Under the pieces are notes generated by a model, which saw only the letters and a list, made by a program, of their open reading frames with translations, ran no database searches and was not told the DNA's origin. Made by a program: the position numbers and the translations under genes. A DNA stretch of 64,000 bases from contig JAXHMZ010000005.1 of assembly GCA_034521025.1 (NCBI GenBank), forward strand, positions 126,796 through 190,795, given 5' to 3'. Positions 1 to 63,500 of the stretch are shown here, piece by piece. Source of the DNA: Candidatus Campbellbacteria bacterium. GTDB taxonomy: Bacteria > Patescibacteriota > Minisyncoccia > Phycocordibacterales > JAXHMZ01. The stretch's first letter is position 1. Each line of letters starts with the position of its first letter.

Positions 1-407
1 TATCCACCTCAGAAGAACAAGCCGACAACACAGCCAGTGCAAAAAGGACGAGAAAGAAGAACGGAACGGTTTTGAAGCGTACATCGAACATTCGATCCTC
101 CTTGGATCTGAGCCGCATTCGGCCCCTAGACACTATTGATCTCACGATGAGATCAATCTATCCTGTTTTTACACTGAAAAACTTTTTCTGTCAATACTTC
201 GTAATGGTTTTGGTACATTTGGAGTGTTCTTATCGAGAAAGTAAAAAGAAACTTAAAAAAGCATTTGTTTTGATCCACAGTCGATTTAAAGAAAAAAATA
301 CGCTCTTGGGGCAACTACTACAATAACACTGGGCACTGTTCTCGCTTAAAGTAAATATTTTAAGCCGTGTATTCTCTGGTAAAGCACCAAAAGTCATTAC
401 CTAAGAC

Positions 408-16276: not shown

Positions 16277-18089
16277 TTATTGATCAAGTTTGTTTTTTGC
16301 TTCTTTGATGGCGAGAATCTGCGCGGGGTCTGAGGTAATTATTTGCTCTTCTGTATACGAGGCGATTATTTTGATGGCAACATGCTTGAGTCCGGCAAAG
16401 AATATTCCCTCTCCCACATCACTCTCCAGCAAAAGATACTTTTCTTCGTCGGTCAGGTTAAAGACTTCTTGCACGTGATCGATCGAGGTGGGAGATTGCT
16501 TCAAGAGTAATTGAATAGAAGAGTTGGTCAAAATTGGCAGACCGTATTCGGAGTTCAAGAAGTCGTCCACGTCCTGGGTTATAGTAGCCACGCCCAAATA
16601 GTACTTGCGACCTCGCTTAACCATACTGTATAGGAATGAAGCAGTGTCTTCGGAGCGCATCATCCACCATGCCTCATCAACTACCAAAAGACGTTTCTTG
16701 AGCTCGAAACGCACAGCGTTCCAGATGAAGTGCGTTATAAGGTACATCGCCATTGGCTTTAATTCGTCTTCCATGTCGCGTATTGAGAACACGATCAACC
16801 TTTGGTCTATATCTACGTTTGTAGGCTGGTTGATAAATTCTGACCACGAACCTTTGGTGTACTTAGAGAGTCTTTGTACGAGAGATTCAGTGCCCTCCAT
16901 TCCGCTCAAGAACCATCTCAAAATCAGACATAAGCGGTGGATCAATGTTAGAAAAGTCGGAATCGGGCGTTATGTCTTTTAGAGCGTATGTTTCGGTAAT
17001 GGCACGGTCGATAATAGCATCTTCTTCCGGCGTTAATCCGCCGAACATAATTCGAAATAAGCCGACCAATTGGATCGTGTTCGACCTGAGCACGTCTGCG
17101 GGGTCCTCGTCTTCTCGTACATCGGGTAAATCAAAAGGATTTATGTGGTGCTCGGAATTTAGTGAAATATTAAAATATCGCCCGCCGATAGCCGTAGCTA
17201 GTTGCTCATATTCACGTTCCGGGTCTATAACTATAACTTCGGTATCGAACATCAGAGTACGAAGTATCTCTAGCTTGGTAGCAAAAGACTTGCCGGCGCC
17301 TGATTTCGCGAAAGAAACCGAGTTGTAGTTCTCGAGTGAAAAACGGTCAAACAAGACCAGCGAGGAATTGTGCCGATTTATGCCGTGGAGGATGCCTTTG
17401 TCTGATGTTAAGTCGAAAGAAATGAAAGGGAAAATACTAGAGAGCGGAGACGTGTTCAGCTTAGAATAAACGTTAAGCTTGTCAGTTCCGAAAGGGAATA
17501 CGCTCATCAGGCCCTGTTCCTGCTGGAATATAGCCGGCTTGATATAAACCAACTTTGCTTCCAGTATGGACCGGATCTCACTTTCGAGCTTATCCAGCTC
17601 GTTTTGGTCTTTTCCGAAAATGGATACATAAAGCCCCACATCGAATAGCTTTTCTTGCGCCTGCTGGAGATCGTCACGAAGACTTTCAAGGTCGGCGAGC
17701 GCTGTATCGAGCATTGGACTACGCACAAGCCCTTTTTGCATACGGGAATTTATCTGAGACTGAACTTCAGCCACCTTTTTTTGAAATTGTCTTAATACCC
17801 GCTCGGTTGAAATTGGATGAACAACAATTGAAATATCGACAATTTTGTCCATATTTATGATCGGAGCGAACCAGCCTTCAGACAGGTATCGCGGATAAGA
17901 GATGACAAAGAAAGTTCGCACCAGCTTGTCTCCCAAGTGGATATCCTTAGGCGTAACCTTTAGGGCCGAAGGAGCGATCACATCCTTTACTTCGAGAGCG
18001 CTGCCCGACGCCATCTCGCCCGGCAAGAGCGATTCGATCGCAGACATCTTGTTTTCTTCTTGATTGTTTTCTTTTCCGAAAAGAGCCAT
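16277..18089 (-). CDS. VirB4/TraC/TrbE-family conjugation/T4SS ATPase. Split by a frameshift in the 16887-16945 overlap; total about 610 aa.
   Basis: Walker A FAKSGAGKSFATKLE in ORF 16887..18089. Walker B LLVVDEAWWMM in ORF 16277..16945. The ORFs overlap by 59 nt in different frames. Confidence 0.8.
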
Positions 18090-52463: not shown

Positions 52464-53849
52464 CTACACCTCTTTCTTTTCTTCTTCCTCCGCGTCCTCG
52501 GAAGCCGTCTCTTCCTCGCTAGCTGTTTCTGTCTCTTCTTCTGATGAAGTTTCGGTTTCTTCTTTTGCTCCTGTCTCTTCTTCGTCTTCTTCGGTGCTTT
52601 CGGCCTCGATGGCTTCTTCCTCGACTTCCTCTGTTGTCTCCTCTGTCGCTGCTGTTTCTTTGCCGGGAATGTTCTCAAGGTTGCCCTTTATTGTGTCGTC
52701 TGGGGCAGCTTCAACTTCTTCGTCACTTCCTACGGAGTGTATTTCGATCTTCCAACCCGTAAGTCTTGCCGCCAAGCGAACATTTTGACCTCCTTTACCG
52801 ATGGCTAGAGATTGTTGGTCGGTGCTAACTTCGACAAAGGCCTTGCCTTCTTCTTCGTCCAGCTCTACCGACAAAACTGAAGCAGGGGAAAGCGCGTCTT
52901 CAATGAACTTGTGCGGATTGTCAGACCATTCGATAATGTCTATCTTCTCTCCGCCCAGCTCGGACATAACTGTTGAAACTCGTACACCTCGTTGTCCTAC
53001 GAGTGAGCCGACGGGATCAATGTTTGGGTCGTTGGAGTATACGGCGACCTTGGAGCGCGAACCCGGTTCTCTCGCGATAGCCGTGATCTCGACCACGTCC
53101 GTTGAGATCTCGGGGGCCTCTGCCTTGAACAATTCTTTTAGAAAATCAGGGTGAGAACGTGAAAGGCGCAAAAATACTCCGCGTCCGCTTTCTTCTACCA
53201 AATAGAGGAGGGCGCGTATTCTCTCGCCCTGTCGGAATCTTTCTCCGGGTATCTGATCATCCCAACCGATGATACCGGTGGTTCTTCCGAGGTCAACGAA
53301 AACTGCCCCGCGCTCAATGCGCTGTACGGTTCCTGAGACGATAGTTCCTTCTTTTTCTCCGAATTCGTCTACAACCGAGACCTTCTCAGCTTCGCGAATT
53401 TTTTGAATGATCACTTGCTTTGCGGTTTGAGCCGCTATGCGTCCGTAGTCGTCTTTTTTCTCCAAAGGAAAGACAATTTCTTCTCCTACTTCGGCATCCT
53501 TTTTGATCTTTTTAGCGTCTTCTAGGAATATATGGTGCTCAGGGTTGTAGCGAGGACGTTCGTCTTCTTCCTCGCCGTTTGTTTCTGTCTCCTCGATGGG
53601 TTCGCCTGTTTCATCCGTTTCAACTACTCGTACGGTTGATTCATCAACCACGATCTTTACCTGAAAGAACTCTACGCCTCCCGAATCTACGTTAAATTGA
53701 GCGCGTATGATCTGTCCTTTTTTTCCGTATTCCTTCTTGTAAGCGGTAGCTAGAGCCGATTCTATGGCCTCTAACACACTAGCGCGCGGAATACCCCTTT
53801 CTTCTTCGAGTTCGGTAAGTACCGAATTAATTACTTTTAGGTCAAACAT
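52464..53849 (-). CDS. nusA: Transcription termination/antitermination factor NusA with a long acidic C-terminal tail.
   Basis: N-terminal, S1 and KH1/KH2 domains (e.g. ...LAIGKGGQNVRLA...). The overlapping basic ORF 52424..52678 is a mirror artefact. Confidence 0.9.
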   Translation of the reverse strand: MFDLKVINSVLTELEEERGIPRASVLEAIESALATAYKKEYGKKGQIIRAQFNVDSGGVEFFQVKIVVDESTVRVVETDETGEPIEETETNGEEEDERPRYNPEHHIFLEDAKKIKKDAEVGEEIVFPLEKKDDYGRIAAQTAKQVIIQKIREAEKVSVVDEFGEKEGTIVSGTVQRIERGAVFVDLGRTTGIIGWDDQIPGERFRQGERIRALLYLVEESGRGVFLRLSRSHPDFLKELFKAEAPEISTDVVEITAIAREPGSRSKVAVYSNDPNIDPVGSLVGQRGVRVSTVMSELGGEKIDIIEWSDNPHKFIEDALSPASVLSVELDEEEGKAFVEVSTDQQSLAIGKGGQNVRLAARLTGWKIEIHSVGSDEEVEAAPDDTIKGNLENIPGKETAATEETTEEVEEEAIEAESTEEDEEETGAKEETETSSEEETETASEEETASEDAEEEEKKEV

Positions 53850-54004: not shown

Positions 54005-54577
54005 TTGTCAATAGACCTTTTCACAGGTGTGAGGTTGTTTATGTCTGTGTTACAATTCCCACATATGAATGGAAAAAGTATTTTAATTATTGTTCTTCTG
54101 TTAGCTGTAGTTGGGATCATCTGGCTTGCCGCCTCCGGCGATGAGCAAGACGGTGACAACGATCAGGATAACGAGGAGCAAGTAGAAACAAACGGTGAGA
54201 CAGACGAAGACCCTGAGTCAGAGGGGAGTAATGACGACTCAGAGGTAGAAGGAGAGCAGAATGGTGAAGATGAAACCTCGGTTGATGACGAAGAAGGCGA
54301 GGAAGAAACCGTGATCACGTTTACGGACAATGGATTTGATCCCGAAGAAGTGACGGTCTCTGTGGGCGAGAGCGTTGTGTGGGTCAATGAGTCCAGTGAA
54401 GGAATGTGGCCTGCTTCAAATGTACATCCAACCCACGAGATATATTCCGAGTTTGATGCTTTAGGTGAAATTCCACCAGGAGAAGGCTGGGAGTTCACAT
54501 TTGAAGAAGCCGGAGATTGGGGATTTCACGATCATCTGAGTCCGCAATTTGAGGGCGTAGTACACGTCACTGAATAG
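54005..54577 (+). CDS. Secreted acidic protein with a C-terminal cupredoxin-like beta-sandwich domain.
   Basis: Signal/TM segment and an Asp/Glu-rich linker. C-terminal ...VITFTDNGFDPEEVTVSVGESVVWVN... pattern. No Cys ligand, so probably not a copper site. Confidence 0.35.
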   Translation: MSIDLFTGVRLFMSVLQFPHMNGKSILIIVLLLAVVGIIWLAASGDEQDGDNDQDNEEQVETNGETDEDPESEGSNDDSEVEGEQNGEDETSVDDEEGEEETVITFTDNGFDPEEVTVSVGESVVWVNESSEGMWPASNVHPTHEIYSEFDALGEIPPGEGWEFTFEEAGDWGFHDHLSPQFEGVVHVTE

Positions 54578-54682
54578 ACAATCTATTATAAGGGACGAAA
54601 GCACGAAGCTCTGGTTTAAGCCAGAGCTTTTGTTTTGAGATTTACCCTTCCCTCATTCTCGCTTAATTACCAATTCGAGCAC

Positions 54683-54785
54683 TTGACAGAAAAAGTATTT
54701 CAATGTAAAAGCAAGATAGATTGGTCTCATAGGGAGACCATCAACACCTAGAGGCCAAATGTGGCCCGGATCCAAGGAGGATCAA
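54683..54785 (+). promoter_or_regulatory. Promoter (TTGACA-17nt-TAAAAG) plus a leader with two hairpins and an RBS. A paralogous leader lies at 60424..60526.
   Basis: Hairpins GGTCTC-ATAGG-GAGACC and GGCCA-AATG-TGGCC. The second shows compensatory changes in the paralog (GGTCA-AATG-TGACC). Confidence 0.5.
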
Positions 54786-55303
54786 ATGTTTGTACGTTTC
54801 AAGATCGTTCCGCTTCTCTTACTCGCCCTTTTTGCTCGGCGCTCCGCGCTCTGGGTAGAATCTTCGGAAGAGGATCCCCTACTTGAAGAAACTTCCCCTC
54901 AAGTTTGGAGCGTGGATCTCAGTGAAGCCGGCTTTGGATTGACCTTTACGCCAAACGACGACCTAAGGTCTGATCCCTACGTGGACTTTCTGGGGATCTA
55001 ATGAAGGTGGAGGTTCTTGCGCAGAGCAACAACCCCGATCTTCACCTACAAACACTCCAAGGGTTCACTCGATATGACTTCATCGATTCAATTTCTGTGT
55101 GTGCCTTGGAGCGCGAGGAAAACGCGGAGCTGCTCGAGAGGATCGATAACGCTACAGAAAGCAACTTCGGTTCTTTCTATGACGCTTGGCTTGGGCTGTA
55201 TGACAGAGAATGTGACACTTCCTTCTCTCGTCTTGGGTGGCCGAACCCTGAAGCCAATGAAGGCCTGGGAATGTGTTCGCTGGAGAGGGTTAGTGAAGTC
55301 TAA
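54786..55303 (+). pseudogene. Array unit 1 of the lectin-like secreted-protein gene, broken into two ORFs by a stop/indel after ...DFLGI.
   Basis: Near-identical to the intact unit 3, except for TAATGAAGG versus TACGAAGG at the junction. Confidence 0.55.
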
Positions 55304-55332
55304 GTAGTTATCCCCAGTGAACTTCATGTTCA

Positions 55333-55925
55333 TTGGCAATTTATATTATAATTAAAGTGTATATGAGTGTTTTCAAACTACTTTCGATATTGGTCTCAGC
55401 TGTAGTCGCTTTTCTATCTGTTGTCGCGTTGTTTTTGATGTTTCTAATGAGAAGGATCCCCCAACCGAAGAAACTTCCCCTCAAGTTTGGAGCGTGGATC
55501 TCAGTGAAGCCGGCTTTGGCGTATTGACCTTTACGCCAAACGACGACCTAAGGTCTGATCCCGACGTGGACTTTCTGGGGATCTAACGAAGGTGGAGGTT
55601 CTTGCGCAGTACAATACAACCCCGATCTCCACGGACAAACACTCGAAGGGTTCACTCGATATGACTTCATCGATTCAATTCTCGTGTGTGCCTTGGAGCG
55701 CGAGGAAAACGCGGAGCTGCTCGAGAGGATTGATAACGCTACAGAAAGCAACTTCGGTTCTTTCTATGACGCTTGGCTTGGGCTGTATGACAGAGAATGT
55801 GACACTTCCTTCTCTCGTCTTGGGTGGCCGAACCCTGAAGCGAATGAAGGCCTGGAATGTGTTCCTGGCTTGGAAGAGGGCTTGAGCGAAGTCTAAGTAG
55901 TTATCCCCAGTGAACTTTATGTTCA
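55333..55925 (+). pseudogene. Array unit 2, frameshifted.
   Basis: T5 versus T6 homopolymer difference in the signal-peptide region relative to unit 3, and TAACGAAGG versus TACGAAGG later. The downstream domain is otherwise intact in another frame. Confidence 0.55.
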
Positions 55926-55955
55926 TTGGGGATTTATATTATAATTAAAGTGTAT

Positions 55956-56471
55956 ATGAGTGTTTTCAAACTACTTTCTTTTTTATTGGTCTCAGCTGTA
56001 GTCGCTTTTCTATTTGTTGTCGCGTTGTTTTTTGATGTTTCTAATGAGAAGGATCCCCCAACCGAAGAAACTTCCCCTCAAGTTTGGAGCGTGGATCTCA
56101 GTGAAGCCGGCTTTGGCGTATTGACCTTTACGCCAAACGACGACCTAAGGTCTGATCCCGACGTGGACTTTCTGGGGATCTACGAAGGTGGAGGTTCTTG
56201 CGCAGTACAATACAACCCCGATCTCCACGGACAAACACTCGAAGGGTTCACTCGATATGACTTCATCGATTCAATTCTCGTGTGTGCCTTGGAGCGCGAG
56301 GAAAACGCGGAGCTGCTCGAGAGGATTGATAACGCTACAGAAAGCAACTTCGGTTCTTTCTATGACGCTTGGCTTGGGCTGTATGACAGAGAATGTGACA
56401 CTTCCTTCTCTCGTCTTGGGTGGCCGAACCCTGAAGCGAATGGAGGCCTGGAACGTGTTCCTGGCTTGTGA
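55956..56471 (+). CDS. Array unit 3, intact: secreted protein with a C-type-lectin-like signature (about 170 aa from Met11 of the ORF).
   Basis: Signal peptide MSVFKLLSFLLVSAVVAFLF. Motifs WLGLYDRECDTSFSRLGWPNPEAN and ...EREENAELLERIDNATESNFGSFYDA. Confidence 0.55.
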   Translation: MSVFKLLSFLLVSAVVAFLFVVALFFDVSNEKDPPTEETSPQVWSVDLSEAGFGVLTFTPNDDLRSDPDVDFLGIYEGGGSCAVQYNPDLHGQTLEGFTRYDFIDSILVCALEREENAELLERIDNATESNFGSFYDAWLGLYDRECDTSFSRLGWPNPEANGGLERVPGL

Positions 56472-56559
56472 AGAGGGCTTGAGCGAAGTCTAAGTACAGT
56501 TAATCCTCAGTGAACTTTATGTTCATTGGGGATTTATATTATAATTAAAGTGTATATGA

Positions 56560-57120
56560 GTGTTTTCAAGCTTACTTTTCTTTTTTATTGGTCTCAGCTG
56601 TAGTCGCTTTTCTATTTGTTGTCGCGTTGTTTTTCTGACGTTTTCCAACGAGAAGGATCCCCCAACCGAAGAGACTTCCCCTCAAGTTTGGAGCGTGGAT
56701 CTCAGTGAAGCCGGCTTTGGCGTATTGACCTTTACGCCAAACGACGACCTAAGGCTCTGATCGACGTGGACTTTCTGGGGATCTACAAAACGAAGGTGGG
56801 AGGTTCTTGCGAGCAGACAAAGTCCGATCTCCACGGACAAACACTCGAAGGGTTCACTCGATATGACTTCATCGATATCAACTCTCGTGTGCGCCTTGGA
56901 GCGCGAGGAAAACGCGGAGCCGCTCGAGAGGATTGATAACGCTACAGAAAGCAACTTCGGTTCTTTCTATGACGCTTGGCTTGGGCTGTATGACAGAGAA
57001 TGTGACACTTCCTTCTCTCGTCTTGGGTGGCCGAACCCTGAAGCGAATGAAGGCCTGGAATGTGTTCCTGGCTTGGGAGAGGGCCTTCTGATGCAGATAG
57101 AGATCCATTATCCCTGACAT
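56560..57120 (+). pseudogene. Array unit 4: the most divergent copy, with several indels and stops.
   Basis: Homologous segments are spread over three frames (56560..56760, 56863..57117). Confidence 0.5.
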
Positions 57121-57203: not shown

Positions 57204-57389
57204 ATGAACGACAAAAAGTTCTTCTATGTACTATTGATAGCATCTGTTGCCCTGGCCCTTGTTTTTGCGGTGCTTATTTTTGGCAAGGGAGGAGCTCAGC
57301 CCACAGGGCAAGATGAAGTCTATCAATATGCTTCGTTGGCAAATGAACACTATTCGAACGAAGAATGGAACAAAACAATCGCACACTGA
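57204..57389 (+). CDS. Small membrane-anchored protein.
   Basis: N-terminal TM helix. 61 aa. Confidence 0.25.
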   Translation: MNDKKFFYVLLIASVALALVFAVLIFGKGGAQPTGQDEVYQYASLANEHYSNEEWNKTIAH

Positions 57390-57456
57390 CTAACAAGGGT
57401 CGGCTTAGGCAAAGCGGGCTTCATCGGGTATATGGAAAAACAGGGGCTATGCATTT

Positions 57457-58080
57457 TTGAGATTGGCTCATGAGGAGCAGTACAATAATGATGCAGACGC
57501 CTCAGTTACAGACGAATTCGCAGAAGAAGCAATACGTAGCCTTGAAACAGCCGTAGAGCGTGACCCACAGGATCATGAAAGTTTGTTCTACCTCGGATAC
57601 ATTCACCTGTTTATGCGTGATAACTGGGAGAGGGCAGCCCCGTACTTAGAACGAGCATACGACCTTGATCCAAAAGACCCCGAGTATCTCATCGGTATGG
57701 GGTGGGTACATAGTCAAAATGCCGAAGAGTCGCTTGAGGATGCCCAGACAGCCGTAACGTACTACGAGGAGTCCATCGAGATCTCCCCGATGCCTTTGGC
57801 GTATAACGGACTCGGCCACGTACTGAGTAACGGTATAAACGACCAAATACGCGCAATAGAAAGCCTCGAGCAGGCGATAGAGCTCGATCCTTCTTACGTT
57901 TCTCCTTACCACAATCTTGCACTTGCTCACGCTCGACTGGGAGAGAAAGAGAAGGCACTTGAATATTACGAGGGAGTCTATGAGCTCACGGGCGAGAATG
58001 ATACGCGGAGAGACGAATTACGTGAAGAGTTGTTAGCAATAGACACTATAAATATACAAGATGATGAATTGGCGCAATAA
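57457..58080 (+). CDS. TPR-repeat protein.
   Basis: Repeated A..Y/...LG.....A 34-residue-like units, e.g. ESLEQAIELDPSYVSPYHNLALAHARLGEKEKALEYYE. Confidence 0.6.
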   Translation: MRLAHEEQYNNDADASVTDEFAEEAIRSLETAVERDPQDHESLFYLGYIHLFMRDNWERAAPYLERAYDLDPKDPEYLIGMGWVHSQNAEESLEDAQTAVTYYEESIEISPMPLAYNGLGHVLSNGINDQIRAIESLEQAIELDPSYVSPYHNLALAHARLGEKEKALEYYEGVYELTGENDTRRDELREELLAIDTINIQDDELAQ

Positions 58081-59520
58081 AATTACCGGCTTTGTTTTTT
58101 TGGTAGCCTTGCTAGCGGTTTTTGGTGGTATTGGAATTCAAACTGCAGACGCTTCGCCGCGACAGGGCTTTCCTCCATCTGCATCGGATGATGACGCGGA
58201 AGCAACAGACGAACCGTTAGTCGAAGGGACGGTAATACTTTAGAGTTCGTAGTCAGACGACGATGGGATTACAGACTAACCGAGTCTGAGCCAGTTACGA
58301 CCAGAAGTTAAACCATGCTCCATGCAGCGGAGCGGAATGATACTGGCGACAGATGATGAATGAATCAGAGTATGGATGCAGTGGTGGCGATGTTATCGTA
58401 AAAACAATGAAACTGAGCGTCCTGGGGGGTTCGGGAACGGAGGTGAACAGCCAGGTAAGGTGATATGTTCAACCTGTGGCATAGAGGAGTCTTGATAGAA
58501 GCGGGAGTCGCGTCGGAATAGATGGCGGGTATCTGGAGCTGATGATCCCGAAGAAGATTATTGCGATCGTTTCCCTATGTCGAGGAGATGCAATGGTGGA
58601 GACGATGGAGGAGACGATGGTGGAGATGATGGTGGAGACGAATGCCCTCCCGGCGATGAGCTCGTGGACGGTAGGTGTGTTCACGTACCAGATCCAGAAC
58701 CGGAGCCCGAGCCGGAACCAGAACCAGAACCGGAGCCCGAGCCGGAACCAGAACCAGAACCGGAGCCCGAGCCGGAACCAGAACCGGAGCCCGACCCTTC
58801 CGTTTTGAATATAAGCAGTAACATAGACAGCTCCGTCGCCCCGGGAGCGGAAGTAACGCGGTGGAATCGTTCTGTTACCTATGATTATGATATGTGCACT
58901 AGAGGTACTCGGTGGGGAGACTTTTCTTATCCATGCAACTTTCGCAGTATAGTTAATTGGTCAGAGTCTGGAACAACATACACAACGATTCGACGAATAA
59001 GGAGTTCAAGTTCTTCTGTACGTAGATACCTTGAGGCGGAAGATACACACAAAGGAGCTAGTTTTACTGGTTGGAGTGGATGTAATGGGGATACATTTAC
59101 GATCGACGGAGGCGTCGGATAGATGCGGTAAGCGCAACGCACGCTGAACTACCAGAACCGTCACCGCTCAAAACCGAGGACCCGATACTCCCACCTCCAC
59201 CAGCACCACAACCAAAGATCAACTCCTTCACCGCCAATCCGGAGTGGATACGACGCTACTCCGAAACTCGAGAAAACGACACCGACGGAAAATCAACTCT
59301 CAGGTGGGACGTCAAAGACGTAGACACCTGTGAAATGGAAGCGAACCCAGAACTAGAACCACCTCTTTCAATGGGCTCAATTGAATCCGATGGAAAAAAA
59401 GAAGTAACCGAGATCACCCGAACCACTGAATTTACCCTCACCTGTACCGGAGAGGATAGCAGTGACGAGGTCTCCGCCACCACCACTGTCAATGTGTTGC
59501 CGGTGTACGAGGAGTTTTAG
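58061..59520 (+). pseudogene. Secreted Cys-rich protein with a (PE)n linker and a C-terminal Ig-like domain, fragmented across at least three frames.
   Basis: Signal peptide in 58061..58243. 58577..59122 holds the GDDGGDD and PEPEPEP... repeats. Frame +2 continues from about 59085 to 59520 (...KINSFTANPEW...TLRWDVKDVDTCEM...). Confidence 0.45.
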
Positions 59521-59871
59521 TAAACATTTACTAAGTACATTAACAAAAACCCCGACCTCACTCGGCGTTTTCGCCAACTCAGAAACCATTTAAAACGATA
59601 CGATTTGTTTTAGCTCCAAGCAGAAACTGCCACCAGAAGAGGAGTTGTTGAATGCAACAACTTCATCCGCCCTGCCGCGATTTCTCGTGGTCTCACCGTA
59701 CTTTCATAGGAGTGGCCAAATTGGAAACGCTCCTCCCCCGACGACCTTGAGCCTACCCCTTTCACTAAGTGCCTGCGCTCAGTTGAACCACCGGAAGCCC
59801 AGGAAGCTTCGAACTCAGAGATCCGACTTGCCTGCCTGATCAAGACACACCCCGAGCAACAGCGTGAGGAG

Positions 59872-60324
59872 ATGAATTATCATCCCATCCTGGGTAAGGT
59901 AGCGCGAGAACGAGCTGAGGACATGGCTGAAAATGGCTACTACGGAGGAGAGGACTATGGTCTTCCATACCCTCCTCACGTTGACCACGACGGCTTTGGC
60001 CCCAATTACTACATTTGCAAAGCGGGCTACATCATAGATCCTTGGATCTGTGAGGAGGCTGAAGAAGACCCGTTCATCAATACGGTTGAGTCGATTGGTT
60101 GGGGTTCGGGTAGTTCAAGGAGTTCCCCTCAAGATCAACTGAACGGTTGGTTAAATTCACCGGGTCATCGCCGGCACGTATTGGCTACTTCAGGCCCCCA
60201 CGAAGTTGCGTCCACCAACTACGGCATAGGCCACGCCGCGACCGGTGATAGCCCCGACCGTCCTGGCAGATCAGCCAGTTTCTGGGTGTTCATTGCCGCA
60301 CCTCCGCCTGAGTCGAGTGAATAG
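59872..60324 (+). CDS. CAP/YkwD-like domain protein, probably lacking its N-terminus (frameshifted upstream).
   Basis: ...NGWLNSPGHRRHVLATSGPHEVASTNYGIGHA resembles the YkwD/CAP motif. The reading frame stays open upstream of the annotated Met. Confidence 0.4.
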   Translation: MNYHPILGKVARERAEDMAENGYYGGEDYGLPYPPHVDHDGFGPNYYICKAGYIIDPWICEEAEEDPFINTVESIGWGSGSSRSSPQDQLNGWLNSPGHRRHVLATSGPHEVASTNYGIGHAATGDSPDRPGRSASFWVFIAAPPPESSE

Positions 60325-60360
60325 AGAAAAAGTACAAAAAACCAAAAGTGGCAGTACAAT

Positions 60361-60390
60361 GAACGGGTCTACGGGCCCGTTCTTTTTTAT
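60361..60390 (+). terminator. Rho-independent terminator after the CAP-like gene.
   Basis: GAACGGG...CCCGTTC hairpin followed by TTTTTTA. Confidence 0.5.
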
Positions 60391-60526
60391 GAAAATTCCA
60401 GCGTCAAACACCATGCCTATCATTGACAGAAAAAGCTTCCCAATGTAAAAGCAAGATAGAGTGGTCTCAAAGGGAGATCATTTACACCTAGAGGTCAAAT
60501 GTGACCTCGGATCCAAGAAGGATCAA

Positions 60527-61009
60527 ATGTTTGGCGTACGTTTAAAGATCGTTCCGCTTTTTCTCATCGTCCTTTTTACTCTGGTTACTCTGGCAGCTTG
60601 CGCTCCCGCGACGGATGCGTTGCCCGAGAGTAGCCCGGAGATTCTCTCTCTTGATGCCAAGAGGATAGACGGCGGAGAGAGAATGCGCTACGAATGGGAA
60701 GTCGATCCGAATGGCTCTACCGCGGATACGTGGCTTGGGGTTTGGACGGGCGACCCACAGCGCCCGGAAATCCCGCAAGGGGAAACGTGGCCGTTTTCTC
60801 TTGATGAATGTGACAATGAAGATAGTGTAACTTGTCACAGCGACTCGCGGGTGACTTTTGCATTTATTCTCGATGTCACTACGGGTGAGGAGGAATCCGG
60901 CACGACTTACTACCAAGTGTACGTCGGTAATTTCGGCCCTCCGAACGATTTTTCTACCCCAAGAGAGGTGGAAGTGAGTAGCGACATTCGCTCTCACGCG
61001 TACCCGTAA
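60527..61009 (+). CDS. Lipoprotein paralogous at its N-terminus and leader to the lectin-like array gene.
   Basis: MFGVRLKIVPLFLIVLFTLVTLAAC lipobox. Upstream leader homologous to 54683..54785. Confidence 0.5.
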   Translation: MFGVRLKIVPLFLIVLFTLVTLAACAPATDALPESSPEILSLDAKRIDGGERMRYEWEVDPNGSTADTWLGVWTGDPQRPEIPQGETWPFSLDECDNEDSVTCHSDSRVTFAFILDVTTGEEESGTTYYQVYVGNFGPPNDFSTPREVEVSSDIRSHAYP

Positions 61010-61158
61010 GGTTCAACTGACAGTAAACATAAGGCGGACACTCGATGTCCGCCTTAACTTATTTTCATAAATTTATATAACATTGATTTTTGATAAAATG
61101 TTGAGCTGTGGAAAACTTTTCGTCTGGTATTTGTATATATGCCATATAATTAATACCA

Positions 61159-61686
61159 ATGGACACTAAAAGCGTTCTCTATATACTATTGGTCGTGCTT
61201 GTCGGATTAGCTCTGATATTTGTAGTGTCGATTTTTGACGGGGAAGAAAGTTCTACGGTTGATGACAAAGGAAGCGAAGAAGAATCAGAAGCTCCGGCGG
61301 AGCAAACCTCAACACAAGATGGTTGGACTCACACCGCCACCGTCAACAACATGAATATCACCTACTACGTCGTCGATGAAGTAGACAGCGAGGAGGGATA
61401 TACGAACGAATACGATCATGAGGCAGAGATGTGCCTCATTCGTCTTTCGGAGGACTACTTGGAAGGGACACCACCTGCAGTTTTTGGTATCCTAGGCTCT
61501 CTCGCACGTTGTTACGGTCAGGCAGAGCTCGGATTTCCAACGGGTGACTTTGTCGCGGATACGAATTACATCAACCGCTTCATCCGTGAATACATCGATC
61601 GGTGCGACAGACAACTCGAACCTCTTGGTTTTCCGGTGAATGACGGACAATGCGAGGATATGCCTCGATTTGAAGAGGAGTTGTAG
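61159..61686 (+). CDS. Membrane-anchored hypothetical protein.
   Basis: N-terminal TM helix. Terminator hairpin at about 61697-61735. Confidence 0.4.
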   Translation: MDTKSVLYILLVVLVGLALIFVVSIFDGEESSTVDDKGSEEESEAPAEQTSTQDGWTHTATVNNMNITYYVVDEVDSEEGYTNEYDHEAEMCLIRLSEDYLEGTPPAVFGILGSLARCYGQAELGFPTGDFVADTNYINRFIREYIDRCDRQLEPLGFPVNDGQCEDMPRFEEEL

Positions 61687-61807
61687 GTTGGAGTACTGCC
61701 GAAGCCCCGTTTTTATGGGGCTTCTTTATATTTGTGGTTATCCCCAATACAAAATGCAAGATGTTCTTACGTCTGTATAATACGGATATATTAAGTTCAG
61801 TTTTGTT

Positions 61808-62971
61808 ATGACATCTCGATATCTCTTTCAATCTCTCTTGGTTTTATCAGCAGCGGTGCTTGTTTCTTTGTTTATACCGACACAGGTATACGCCCAAGGA
61901 GGAAGTGTTGGCGTGTACAAATGTTTTGGAGGGGCGTGTCAAATGGTTTCTTGTGCTACAGGTAGTTGCGTAGACCAGTGTAGTTCTTATAAAGACTGTC
62001 AAGAGCCCGAGCCCGAGCCTGATGACGATGAGGAAACACATAGAATCAGGATAATAGTAAGCGGAGAGGGGTCAGGAACGGTTAGGGGTAATTATGGGAT
62101 CAACTGTAGCTCCGACTGTCGCTATAGTAATAGAACTTCATCTAGTTCCACTACCTGGTCTCCGAGAGCAACTGCTGATTTCTGACCTCGGAATTCGTGG
62201 AATGGAAAAGCGGCCCCGTTTGATAGAGATGGAAGATATGTTTGCGGAACGAATATAGAGTGCGAGGTCGAAGGGAGAACCTCTACTGTTACTTTAGAAG
62301 CAGAGTTTGACCTTGTGCCGGAGCCCGATCCTGAACCAGAGCCGGAGCCGGATCCGGATCCTGAACCCGATCCCGAGCCTGAACCAGAGCCTGACCCCGA
62401 ACCTGAGCCAGAGCCGGTTGAAACAATTCTTAATGTACGTAGCAGGATCAACAATATCTCGGCAAACGCGGACGTTACATTTTGGCGAGAAGAGTTTTCC
62501 GGATGGAACTCCTGCACCATATCTGGTTATGTGTTTCCCTATTGTGAGCCGGAGTACACCTGGACCGAGTACTCTACAGCCCAAACACCCCATCAAATTA
62601 AAACTAGCAGTAACATTGAGCGATATATAGAAGCCGAAGGAGAGCACAGCGGAGCTAACTTTTCCCGCTGGAATGACTGCGACAATAATTCATATCCAAT
62701 AAACGGCGCTTCCAATGACGTTTGCTATACGTATGTCTCCGCCGATGGAACACAAACTGTTACTGCTAGGTATGAGGATAATGCCTCAGATTTAACTCTG
62801 GAAAAAAATATTTCCTCAAAAACAACCTTCTTCGGCAAGGGGGGCGTGGTAACAAATGAGACCGGCCAAAACGGTGGTATACAACTTACTTGCGACAATG
62901 ATAGTAGTAGTTGTAGAACCGCTACTGATAGTTTCACACAGTCTGAAGTCGGAGTAGTGGCTACCCCCTGA
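61808..62971 (+). CDS. Secreted Cys-rich protein with a (PE/PD)n linker, read as one frame containing a single in-frame TGA at 62183..62185.
   Basis: ORFs 61808..62185 and 62315..62971 are in the same frame, separated only by TGA. The C-terminal domain is paralogous to 58577..59122 (...[14 protein letters not shown].. versus ..ERYIEAEGEHSGANF..). Confidence 0.45.
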
Positions 62972-63032
62972 CTCGAACACATCCTCCGTCTTTCATAGGT
63001 GGCTGGTACCCTGATTCCGGATTATAGCTGCT

Positions 63033-63500
63033 ATGGACAGAAGGAATACAGCGTTGTCCCAAACCTGCAATGTGCCAATGAGTCAATCTTCCGAGAGCCT
63101 GGGTGCTCGGTTTAGGAACTTTAGAACTTTGGCCGGCGAGGCGGAGCAAGTGCTGGGCTCTAGTGCTAGATTACACGGGGAAGTGCAGGTATATAACTCC
63201 ACCTATGATTCTCCTATAGAGCTATCATTTAGACTTTGGGATTCTGAAAATGTCCCGGCTGAATGTGATGCGCCGGGAGGAATAGATATCTCTGTGGAAG
63301 AAAGGACATTTTCCAATAATGGAACTTATGAGTTTTCTACTATCATAGGAGCCGAGGGAGAGCACGATGTTGATTTGGAGCAAAATACCGAATATGTTTA
63401 TTGTGCGATCGGCGAACAGGATAACGGAACACAGGTTACGAAATACAGTGACTTAAGTGGACTTCAGACTTTGATAAGACCAAACTTTCAAGAGTTTTAG
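63033..63500 (+). CDS. Paralog of the C-terminal domain family (AEGEH motif).
   Basis: ...FSTIIGAEGEHDVDLEQNTEYVYCAIGEQDNGT.... Confidence 0.35.
   Translation: MDRRNTALSQTCNVPMSQSSESLGARFRNFRTLAGEAEQVLGSSARLHGEVQVYNSTYDSPIELSFRLWDSENVPAECDAPGGIDISVEERTFSNNGTYEFSTIIGAEGEHDVDLEQNTEYVYCAIGEQDNGTQVTKYSDLSGLQTLIRPNFQEF

Follow-up and report, generated by a model that had tools for sequence, protein, structure and literature searches.

Does a row of nearly identical, broken genes reflect a switch that turns surface proteins on and off, a gene family in decay or an error of assembly? The question is raised by a tandem array at positions 54683-57117 of a 64,000-nt stretch of contig JAXHMZ010000005.1 (hereafter the window), part of the metagenome-assembled genome (MAG) of a Candidatus Campbellbacteria bacterium, which belongs to the Candidate Phyla Radiation (CPR). 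The array consists of four head-to-tail units of a gene for a small exported protein. As deposited, none of the four units is predicted to encode the conserved form of this protein. We tentatively read the array as the product of a tandem amplification, recent and specific to its lineage, of a ~0.6-kb unit that is now decaying, an account that we place just short of even likelihood.

Layout of the array and state of its four units

The tandem array itself is real in the sequence. A blastn search with unit 3 (55897-56493) returned unit 2 (55304-55896) at 97.7%, unit 4 (56498-57084) at 93.8% and the body of unit 1 (54871-55303) at 91.7% identity, with no match across the window beyond the array's own units. 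The units are 587-607 bp long and 92-98% identical, a similarity beyond chance (E = 0 to 1e-179, blastn), and a repeat finder placed their starts 587, 596 and 607 nt apart, as expected from the head-to-tail arrangement described in a first-pass annotation made from the sequence alone. With its maximum period of 500, the program TRF missed the ~0.6-kb array, and it found no short-period repeat inside it.

All units lie on the plus strand and are built as a gene, a terminator-like hairpin, an AT-rich spacer with TATAAT and the next start codon. Unit 1 (54786-55303) joins a leader-derived signal-peptide start, MFVRFKIVPLLLLALF..., to the repeat body beginning at 54871. Downstream of the spacer hairpin between units 1 and 2 (55314-55336) come TATAAT and then the ATG at 55363 that starts the unit 2 gene, and terminator-like hairpins recur in the spacers of unit 3 (55903-55933) and unit 4 (56502-56534). 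Unit 3 contains the longest open reading frame (ORF), from ATG 55956 to TGA 56471 (171 aa, NCBI MDZ7726595). The N-termini of units 2-4, read from the sequence, carry the hydrophobic anchor MSVFKLLSFLLVSAVVAFLFVVALFF. Unit 4 (56494-57117) departs from the repeat at ~57085 and ends with ...CVPGLGEGLLMQIEIHYP and a stop; its C-terminus (...CVPGLGEGLL...) is similar to the one in P0003, a homologue present as a single copy (...CVPGLEEGLLSNSE...), so this is probably the original gene end. At the left edge of the locus, a further terminator-like hairpin with a T-run (54605-54630, plus strand) ends a cupredoxin-like gene. The description of the units as four copies applies to the repeat bodies; the first ~190 nt of unit 1 (54683-54870) bear no relation to the 5' ends of units 2-4 and form a distinct promoter, 5' untranslated region (UTR) and signal-peptide module. 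Judged by sequence, unit 1 is a chimera of this leader module and the repeat body.

The conserved form of the protein is known from relatives. A full HMMER scan with unit 3 against 1.84 billion representative proteins gave 10 matches, namely three fragments of the locus itself, six full-length proteins (P0003, P0005, P0007, P0008, P0009 and P0010; 177-218 aa, 32-48% identity to unit 3) and P0011, which is the N-terminal part of a copy with a frameshift. A subsequent profile search added a seventh full-length homologue, P0012. The closest intact homologue is P0003 (phmmer E = 1.9e-30). Four invariant Cys are common to all seven, as are the motifs W-x-x-DLS, YNP, E-N, RLGW and CVP. A consensus reconstructed from the units (~180 aa in the conserved form) aligns end to end with these homologues at 30-48% identity; the four-Cys/RLGW/CVP pattern is present in this consensus and in the C-terminal part of unit 2, and unit 3 lacks the fourth Cys.

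We judged the state of each unit by unit alignment, three-frame translation and tblastn with intact P0003. Unit 3 had been taken for the one intact copy. It is the only long ORF, but compared with the seven full-length homologues a TGT to CGT change at 56454 converts the invariant fourth Cys, in the CVP motif, to Arg, a GAA to GGA change at 56443 replaces Glu by Gly, and a T inserted at 56469 creates a TGA, by which the conserved C-terminal segment is lost. Because this sole long ORF lacks both the fourth Cys and the C-terminal tail, no unit is left to encode the conserved protein in the predicted translations.

The remaining units carry more obvious damage. In unit 1, an extra A at 55000 after ...GGGATCTA makes a TAA at ...LGI; in addition, 2 nt are missing after 55028 and 7 nt after 55279, a G has been added at 55267, and one deletion of 3 nt keeps the frame. 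Unit 2 has five T at 55432-55436 (T5) against six in unit 3 (T6, 56028-56033) and an extra A at 55585, again after ...GGGATCTA and again making a TAA. These two shifts compensate each other, yet ~50 codons stay out of frame and closed; the C-terminal two thirds of unit 2, CVPGLEEGLSEV included, otherwise follow the consensus. In tblastn, P0003 matched units 1 and 2 in two frames each. The T-run difference, the extra nucleotide at ...LGIY in units 1 and 2 and the stronger decay of unit 4, the most damaged copy with at least seven indel events, had all been read correctly in the first-pass annotation. Its statement that the copies differ by homopolymer length holds for a part of the changes, since ~5 of the ~16 indel events add or remove a single base in a run of 1-6 nt and the others involve 2-8 nt (with 2-, 3-, 5- and 7-nt events) or are complex. 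Restoring the conserved protein would take two corrections in unit 2, at least four in unit 1 and at least seven in unit 4. The indels of unit 4 lie at 56573-56574, 56636-56637, 56755-56761, 56785-56789, 56798, 56810 and 56877. The site after ...GGGGATCTA has gained one A in unit 1 (54999-55001), one A in unit 2 (55584-55586) and the five nucleotides CAAAA in unit 4 (56785-56789); either insertions are locally favoured at this point, or the units share a lesion inherited from an ancestor.

Measured against intact homologues, the frameshifts and premature stops make the units pseudogenes in the sequence as deposited, where the array is annotated as five hypothetical proteins of 80, 100, 67, 171 and 84 aa (U5L75_03375 to 03395), the 80- and 100-aa ORFs lying in unit 1. 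Two forms of recoding were considered and rejected. Programmed +1 frameshifting at ...GGGGAUCUAAC, of the prfB kind, would leave units 1 and 2 each in need of a second shift elsewhere, and the AUC to UCU re-pairing is not cognate. Recoding of TGA does not agree with the genes of the first 54 kb of the window, which read cleanly with table 11.

Decay of an amplified gene or errors of assembly

In the reading that we prefer, unequal recombination would have amplified the gene-plus-terminator unit in tandem, and the first copy would then have captured the promoter, 5'UTR and signal-peptide module. The lesions would be true mutations, and the array would decay together with its neighbours, including TPR and InlB-B-repeat-like genes, as part of a dying accessory surface-protein island of ~9 kb rather than act as a regulated switch.

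The array is the left end of this block (54.7-63.5 kb), which has a GC content of 0.47-0.51 against ~0.43 elsewhere, encodes only exported proteins and lipoproteins and holds nearly all frameshifts of the window, with lesions more than 100-fold denser than in the other 54 kb. The TPR gene adjoining the array (57204-58080, plus strand) is split into ORFs of 61 and 207 aa. The break, near codon 60 (57387-57430), involves at least one in-frame stop and at least one frameshift, and the orthologue of the gene matches it in frames 3 and 1 (tblastn). Next come two paralogous genes for large exported proteins (58061-59517 and 61808-63500, plus strand) with Pro-Glu linkers (58687-58797 and 62318-62415) and InlB-B-repeat-like segments, and in both the reading frame switches several times. 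Between them lie one lipoprotein gene and one 175-aa gene, both intact. The C-terminus ...LPVYEEF of the Pro-Glu-linker proteins is shared with the Flg_new_2 protein of a related locus (L004).

Several features of the lesions fit decay. Indels of 2, 3, 5 and 7 nt and complex events are unlike the usual consensus errors, the TPR gene contains at least one nonsense substitution, and unit 3 has missense changes at invariant residues. The ratio of non-synonymous to synonymous changes (pN/pS) of unit 1 or unit 4 against units 2 and 3 is about 0.45-0.55, which suggests that these copies diverged for a time under constraint and is not expected from random errors. The lesions are confined to 54.7-63.5 kb in a window that is otherwise clean; the first 54 kb are densely coding, with NusA, pyrophosphatase, trigger factor, ClpP, RNase Y and MscS intact, and because about 50 genes in the remainder of the window read without damage, the base-level quality of the contig appears good. 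Within the block, an independent assembly in Logan (L015, run SRR26473340; 2,225 bp) reproduces 59847-62071 at 100% identity.

Related loci provide a precedent. Locus L004 is syntenic with the window and has a single intact family copy between an InlB-B-repeat protein and a TPR gene that is likewise intact (281-300 aa, 68% identical to the window TPR gene), so the broken state is specific to the window's lineage. Two intact tandem copies are found in L005 and L006. In L001 (10001-11251), another CPR-like metagenomic contig, the family forms a tandem pair of which the first copy is intact and the second loses its frame at a C4 run (TACAACCCCGCATC), where C5 would restore ...YNPRIF.... The resulting split (143 + 84 aa) is identical in nine contigs from a Joint Genome Institute (JGI) sample and seven separate sequencing runs (including L007-L014), and real, fixed inactivation therefore occurs in this family. 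Tandem duplication and genuine inactivation are thus both recurrent in it.

Other evidence weighs against decay, and much of it would equally follow if the genome carried a number of intact paralogues, perhaps not four, and the frameshifts of the array and its neighbours came from mis-polishing or haplotype mixing. The share of indels is high for neutral decay, with inter-unit indels nearly as frequent as substitutions (8 mismatches and 4 gaps between units 2 and 3, 14 and 14 between units 4 and 3). Several are one-base changes in short runs (T5/T6, G2/G3, A1/A2). Units 2 and 3 differ by no synonymous and four non-synonymous changes and share an identical stretch of 263 nt, the kind of repeat in which assemblers and polishers fail and which invites mis-placement of reads. 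The lesions concentrate in a repeat-rich block of atypical, higher GC that encodes exported proteins only, as do strain-variable islands with low, mixed metagenome coverage. CPR genomes are normally compact, and a 9-kb block of pseudogenes is not the default expectation. The sole stretch of the block that has been assembled independently, 59847-62071, is the one with the intact genes, and among the assemblies searched none independent of the deposited one covered the array or the TPR lesions.

This last result needs to be read with the coverage of the collections in mind. Only one Logan contig matched the window, and exact-protein look-ups (fragments of units 1, 3 and 4, the TPR N-terminal ORF, one VirB4 half and NusA) retrieved no other contig. 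The MAG housekeeping proteins that we checked were also absent from Logan (they were found in NCBI only), and the silence of Logan on the array therefore carries no weight. The segment 59847-62071 may be more abundant than the remaining genome or shared between strains. A literature search for the origin of the MAG and its sequencing platform gave no result.

One gene outside the block is also split. A VirB4/TraC-like ATPase (16277-18089, minus strand) is present as two overlapping ORFs of 400 and 222 aa, which match the PF19044 TraG P-loop profile at positions 27-108 and 186-344. The split falls at the GGAGGGCAC run (G3) near 16893 and could be either a frameshift or an assembly indel. Because of it, a base-level indel problem or decay must exist elsewhere in the window too; it counts against the decay reading and hints at residual indel errors.

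We therefore regard assembly or consensus error as a substantial possibility, if a doubtful one. What holds it back is the same set of observations that favours decay of the amplified array: many lesions span several bases or are complex, a nonsense substitution occurs at least once, the pN/pS values lie below 1, a genuine frameshift is fixed in the same family in another organism, and the other genes of the window are clean. Real lesions would make the locus a clear case of an accessory surface-protein island that a streamlined CPR genome first amplified and later gave up. If they are artefacts, the five deposited hypothetical proteins are fragments of three or four intact paralogues. The two explanations of pseudogenisation and assembly error that had been offered at first both survive, and slipped-strand phase variation, offered beside them, is poorly supported.

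Some further observations concern the rest of the window. The VirB4/TraC-like gene lies within a cluster resembling a type IV secretion system (T4SS; about 11-21 kb), in which an M23 peptidase/T4SS-pilin protein is also encoded. NusA (52464-53849, minus strand) has a long acidic C-terminal tail, and the cupredoxin-like membrane protein upstream of the array (54005-54577, plus strand) contains a linker of ~70 residues rich in Asp and Glu. Acidic proteomes of this kind are typical of organisms from saline habitats.

The unit 1 leader and the unlikely case for switching

The leader module of unit 1 is ~155 nt long and occurs three times in the window, at 54683-54838 (plus strand), 60423-60581 (plus) and 34-195 (minus), the array copy being 85% identical to the second and 75% identical to the third. 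Those two copies head lipoprotein genes. The module starts with a promoter-like TTGACA, a 17-nt spacer and TAAAAG (54683-54711, plus strand), read from the sequence and conserved in all three copies. A 5'UTR of ~75 nt follows (54712-54785), with three hairpins, the last of which encloses the Shine-Dalgarno sequence AAGGAGG, and the 3' part of the module encodes the first ~17 codons of the signal peptide (MF.VR.K.VP...). The hairpins are supported by compensatory changes among the copies (GGCC/GGCC versus GGTC/GACC, and GGTCTC/GAGACC versus GATCTC/GAGATC), and the leader folds are more stable than shuffled sequences (z = -2.3 and -4.1). A search of Rfam with the leader gave no match, and a covariance model built on it found only its three window copies. 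The module may represent a new cis-regulatory leader for exported proteins.

With a T-run difference inside the signal-anchor coding region, the array could be a contingency locus, in which slippage in short runs or recombination between units toggles surface-protein copies. The products are predicted to be exported, the site after ...GATCTA has taken A-rich insertions (+1, +1 and +5) in three units, the L001 relative is frameshifted at a C4 run, and the differences between units are clustered in blocks separated by invariant stretches of 110-260 nt that would permit gene conversion. The runs at the lesion sites, however, reach 6 nt at most (T6 at 56028-56033, the others 1-3 nt), and neither the promoter nor the 5' coding region has a long mononucleotide tract or a short tandem repeat. 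Known contingency genes have longer tracts than these. Nor do the putative ON and OFF copies differ by tract length alone: unit 3, which would be the ON copy, lacks an invariant Cys through a missense change and carries an insertion outside any tract. Because every unit has at least two independent defects, most of them outside runs, no single slip would restore the wild-type protein. In the L001 lineage the frameshifted state is uniform in nine of nine contigs, with no in-frame variant in the databases and no sign of switching. Toggling of this kind is improbable here. A working contingency locus of a CPR episymbiont that combines slippage with gene conversion between units, the unit 1 module marking the expressed slot, seems to us just as improbable; if true, it would be the first phase- or antigenic-variation system described in CPR, on a fold unseen in the PDB.

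Still less likely is a system of one expression site with silent cassettes, where unit 1 would be expressed and units 2-4 would act as donors for gene conversion. It would explain why the TTGACA-17-TAAAAG promoter, the structured 5'UTR and the strong Shine-Dalgarno sequence occur only at unit 1, why terminator-like hairpins separate the units, and why units 1 and 4 share a variant at alignment columns 366-367 and units 1 and 2 an extra A. But unit 1 is itself frameshifted twice, units 2-4 differ from silent cassettes with truncated 5' ends in keeping a start codon, a TATAAT box and a membrane anchor as complete transcription units, the four copies offer little diversity, and no recombinase or guide elements were seen near the array.

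An orphan protein family and its likeness to known systems

The units had also been credited with a C-type-lectin signature. The idea that they encode C-type-lectin-like carbohydrate-binding proteins draws on a superficial likeness of AWLGLYD to the WIGL motif, together with the cysteines, and is barely credible given that the GL of WLGL is not conserved among the homologues and that neither the consensus nor any of 11 family members matches Lectin_C (PF00059) at E<=1. Comparing unit 3 itself with folds of the C-type lectin-like domain (CTLD), as had been proposed, was of no use, as the single-sequence AlphaFold2 model reached a pLDDT of 48. We modelled P0003 instead from an 11-sequence alignment (pLDDT 77, pTM 0.67; 83-92 across most of residues 40-150). 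The model consists of four strands followed by four helices, and the AWLNRY segment at the position of the WL motif lies within helix 127-142, not in a core beta-strand as in a CTLD. Foldseek searches of the PDB and BFVD with this model returned no lectin fold, the best PDB match having E = 0.58 and a TM score of ~0.2. Weak rows for ZMPSTE24, SprT-like proteins and lethal factor (E>0.5, TM ~0.2) were not used, and the HExxH motif is absent from the family. The lectin label is unsupported.

The family to which the units belong is very rare and uncharacterised, and has no recognisable fold relative. Its proteins are predicted to be exported; their N-termini, read from the sequences, are of the lipobox, signal-peptide or anchor type (P0003 ...LFTSC, P0009 ...ILTAC, P0012 ...LAAC). 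Neither the unit consensus nor any of the 11 members matched Pfam at E<=1, NCBIfam contained nothing relevant, and a PDB sequence search gave no match. All members are metagenomic, and no relative was found among 185,579 species-representative genomes. Exact 30-mer and profile-derived pattern searches of genome and metagenome collections produced no further relative and no second copy of the array. The family appears confined to metagenomic contigs with gene content like that of the MAG, and we infer that its hosts are CPR/Patescibacteria.

Whether the lesions are real or artefacts, the array offers no new mechanism, and neither the lectin nor the phase-variation label should be propagated. 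As a set of paralogues that is either decaying or mis-assembled, the array is nothing out of the ordinary, and its points of interest are small, namely the orphan family and the shared structured leader. The locus does flag an unannotated family of exported proteins that has no structural relative and has been repeatedly tandem-duplicated and inactivated.

Set beside known systems, the units resemble the C-type lectin-like domain (PF00059) in being small, Cys-containing and extracytoplasmic and in having, in this genome alone, a W-L/I-G-L-like tetrapeptide, but they differ in the missing profile and structural matches and in a motif that is unconserved and, in the model, helical. Set against pilE/pilS and vlsE systems, with one promoter-bearing expression copy and promoterless, 5'-truncated donor cassettes, the array gives a mixed picture: unit 1 alone bears the leader promoter, units 2-4 have their own start codons, anchors, TATAAT boxes and terminators, and unit 1 is broken. 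With the phase-variable genes of Neisseria, Haemophilus, Campylobacter and Helicobacter the array shares an exported product and a one-base T-run change in the 5' coding region, whereas its tract measures 5-6 nt and each copy has several lesions, mostly outside tracts. The likeness to the four-Cys relatives (P0003, P0005/P0014, P0007, P0008, P0009, P0010 and P0012) extends to the four Cys, the motifs and the export signal, and elsewhere too the genes have TPR or InlB-B-repeat (Flg_new_2) surface-protein genes as neighbours and have been duplicated in tandem more than once; the window differs from them in having four copies against one or two, in the disruption of all four and in the foreign promoter, leader and signal module of the first. 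Compared with birth-and-death paralogue arrays, it has no intact copy, an unusually high share of indels and a compact CPR genome as its setting, but shows the similar head-to-tail units with their own terminators, the independent lesions and the broken accessory neighbours of such arrays.

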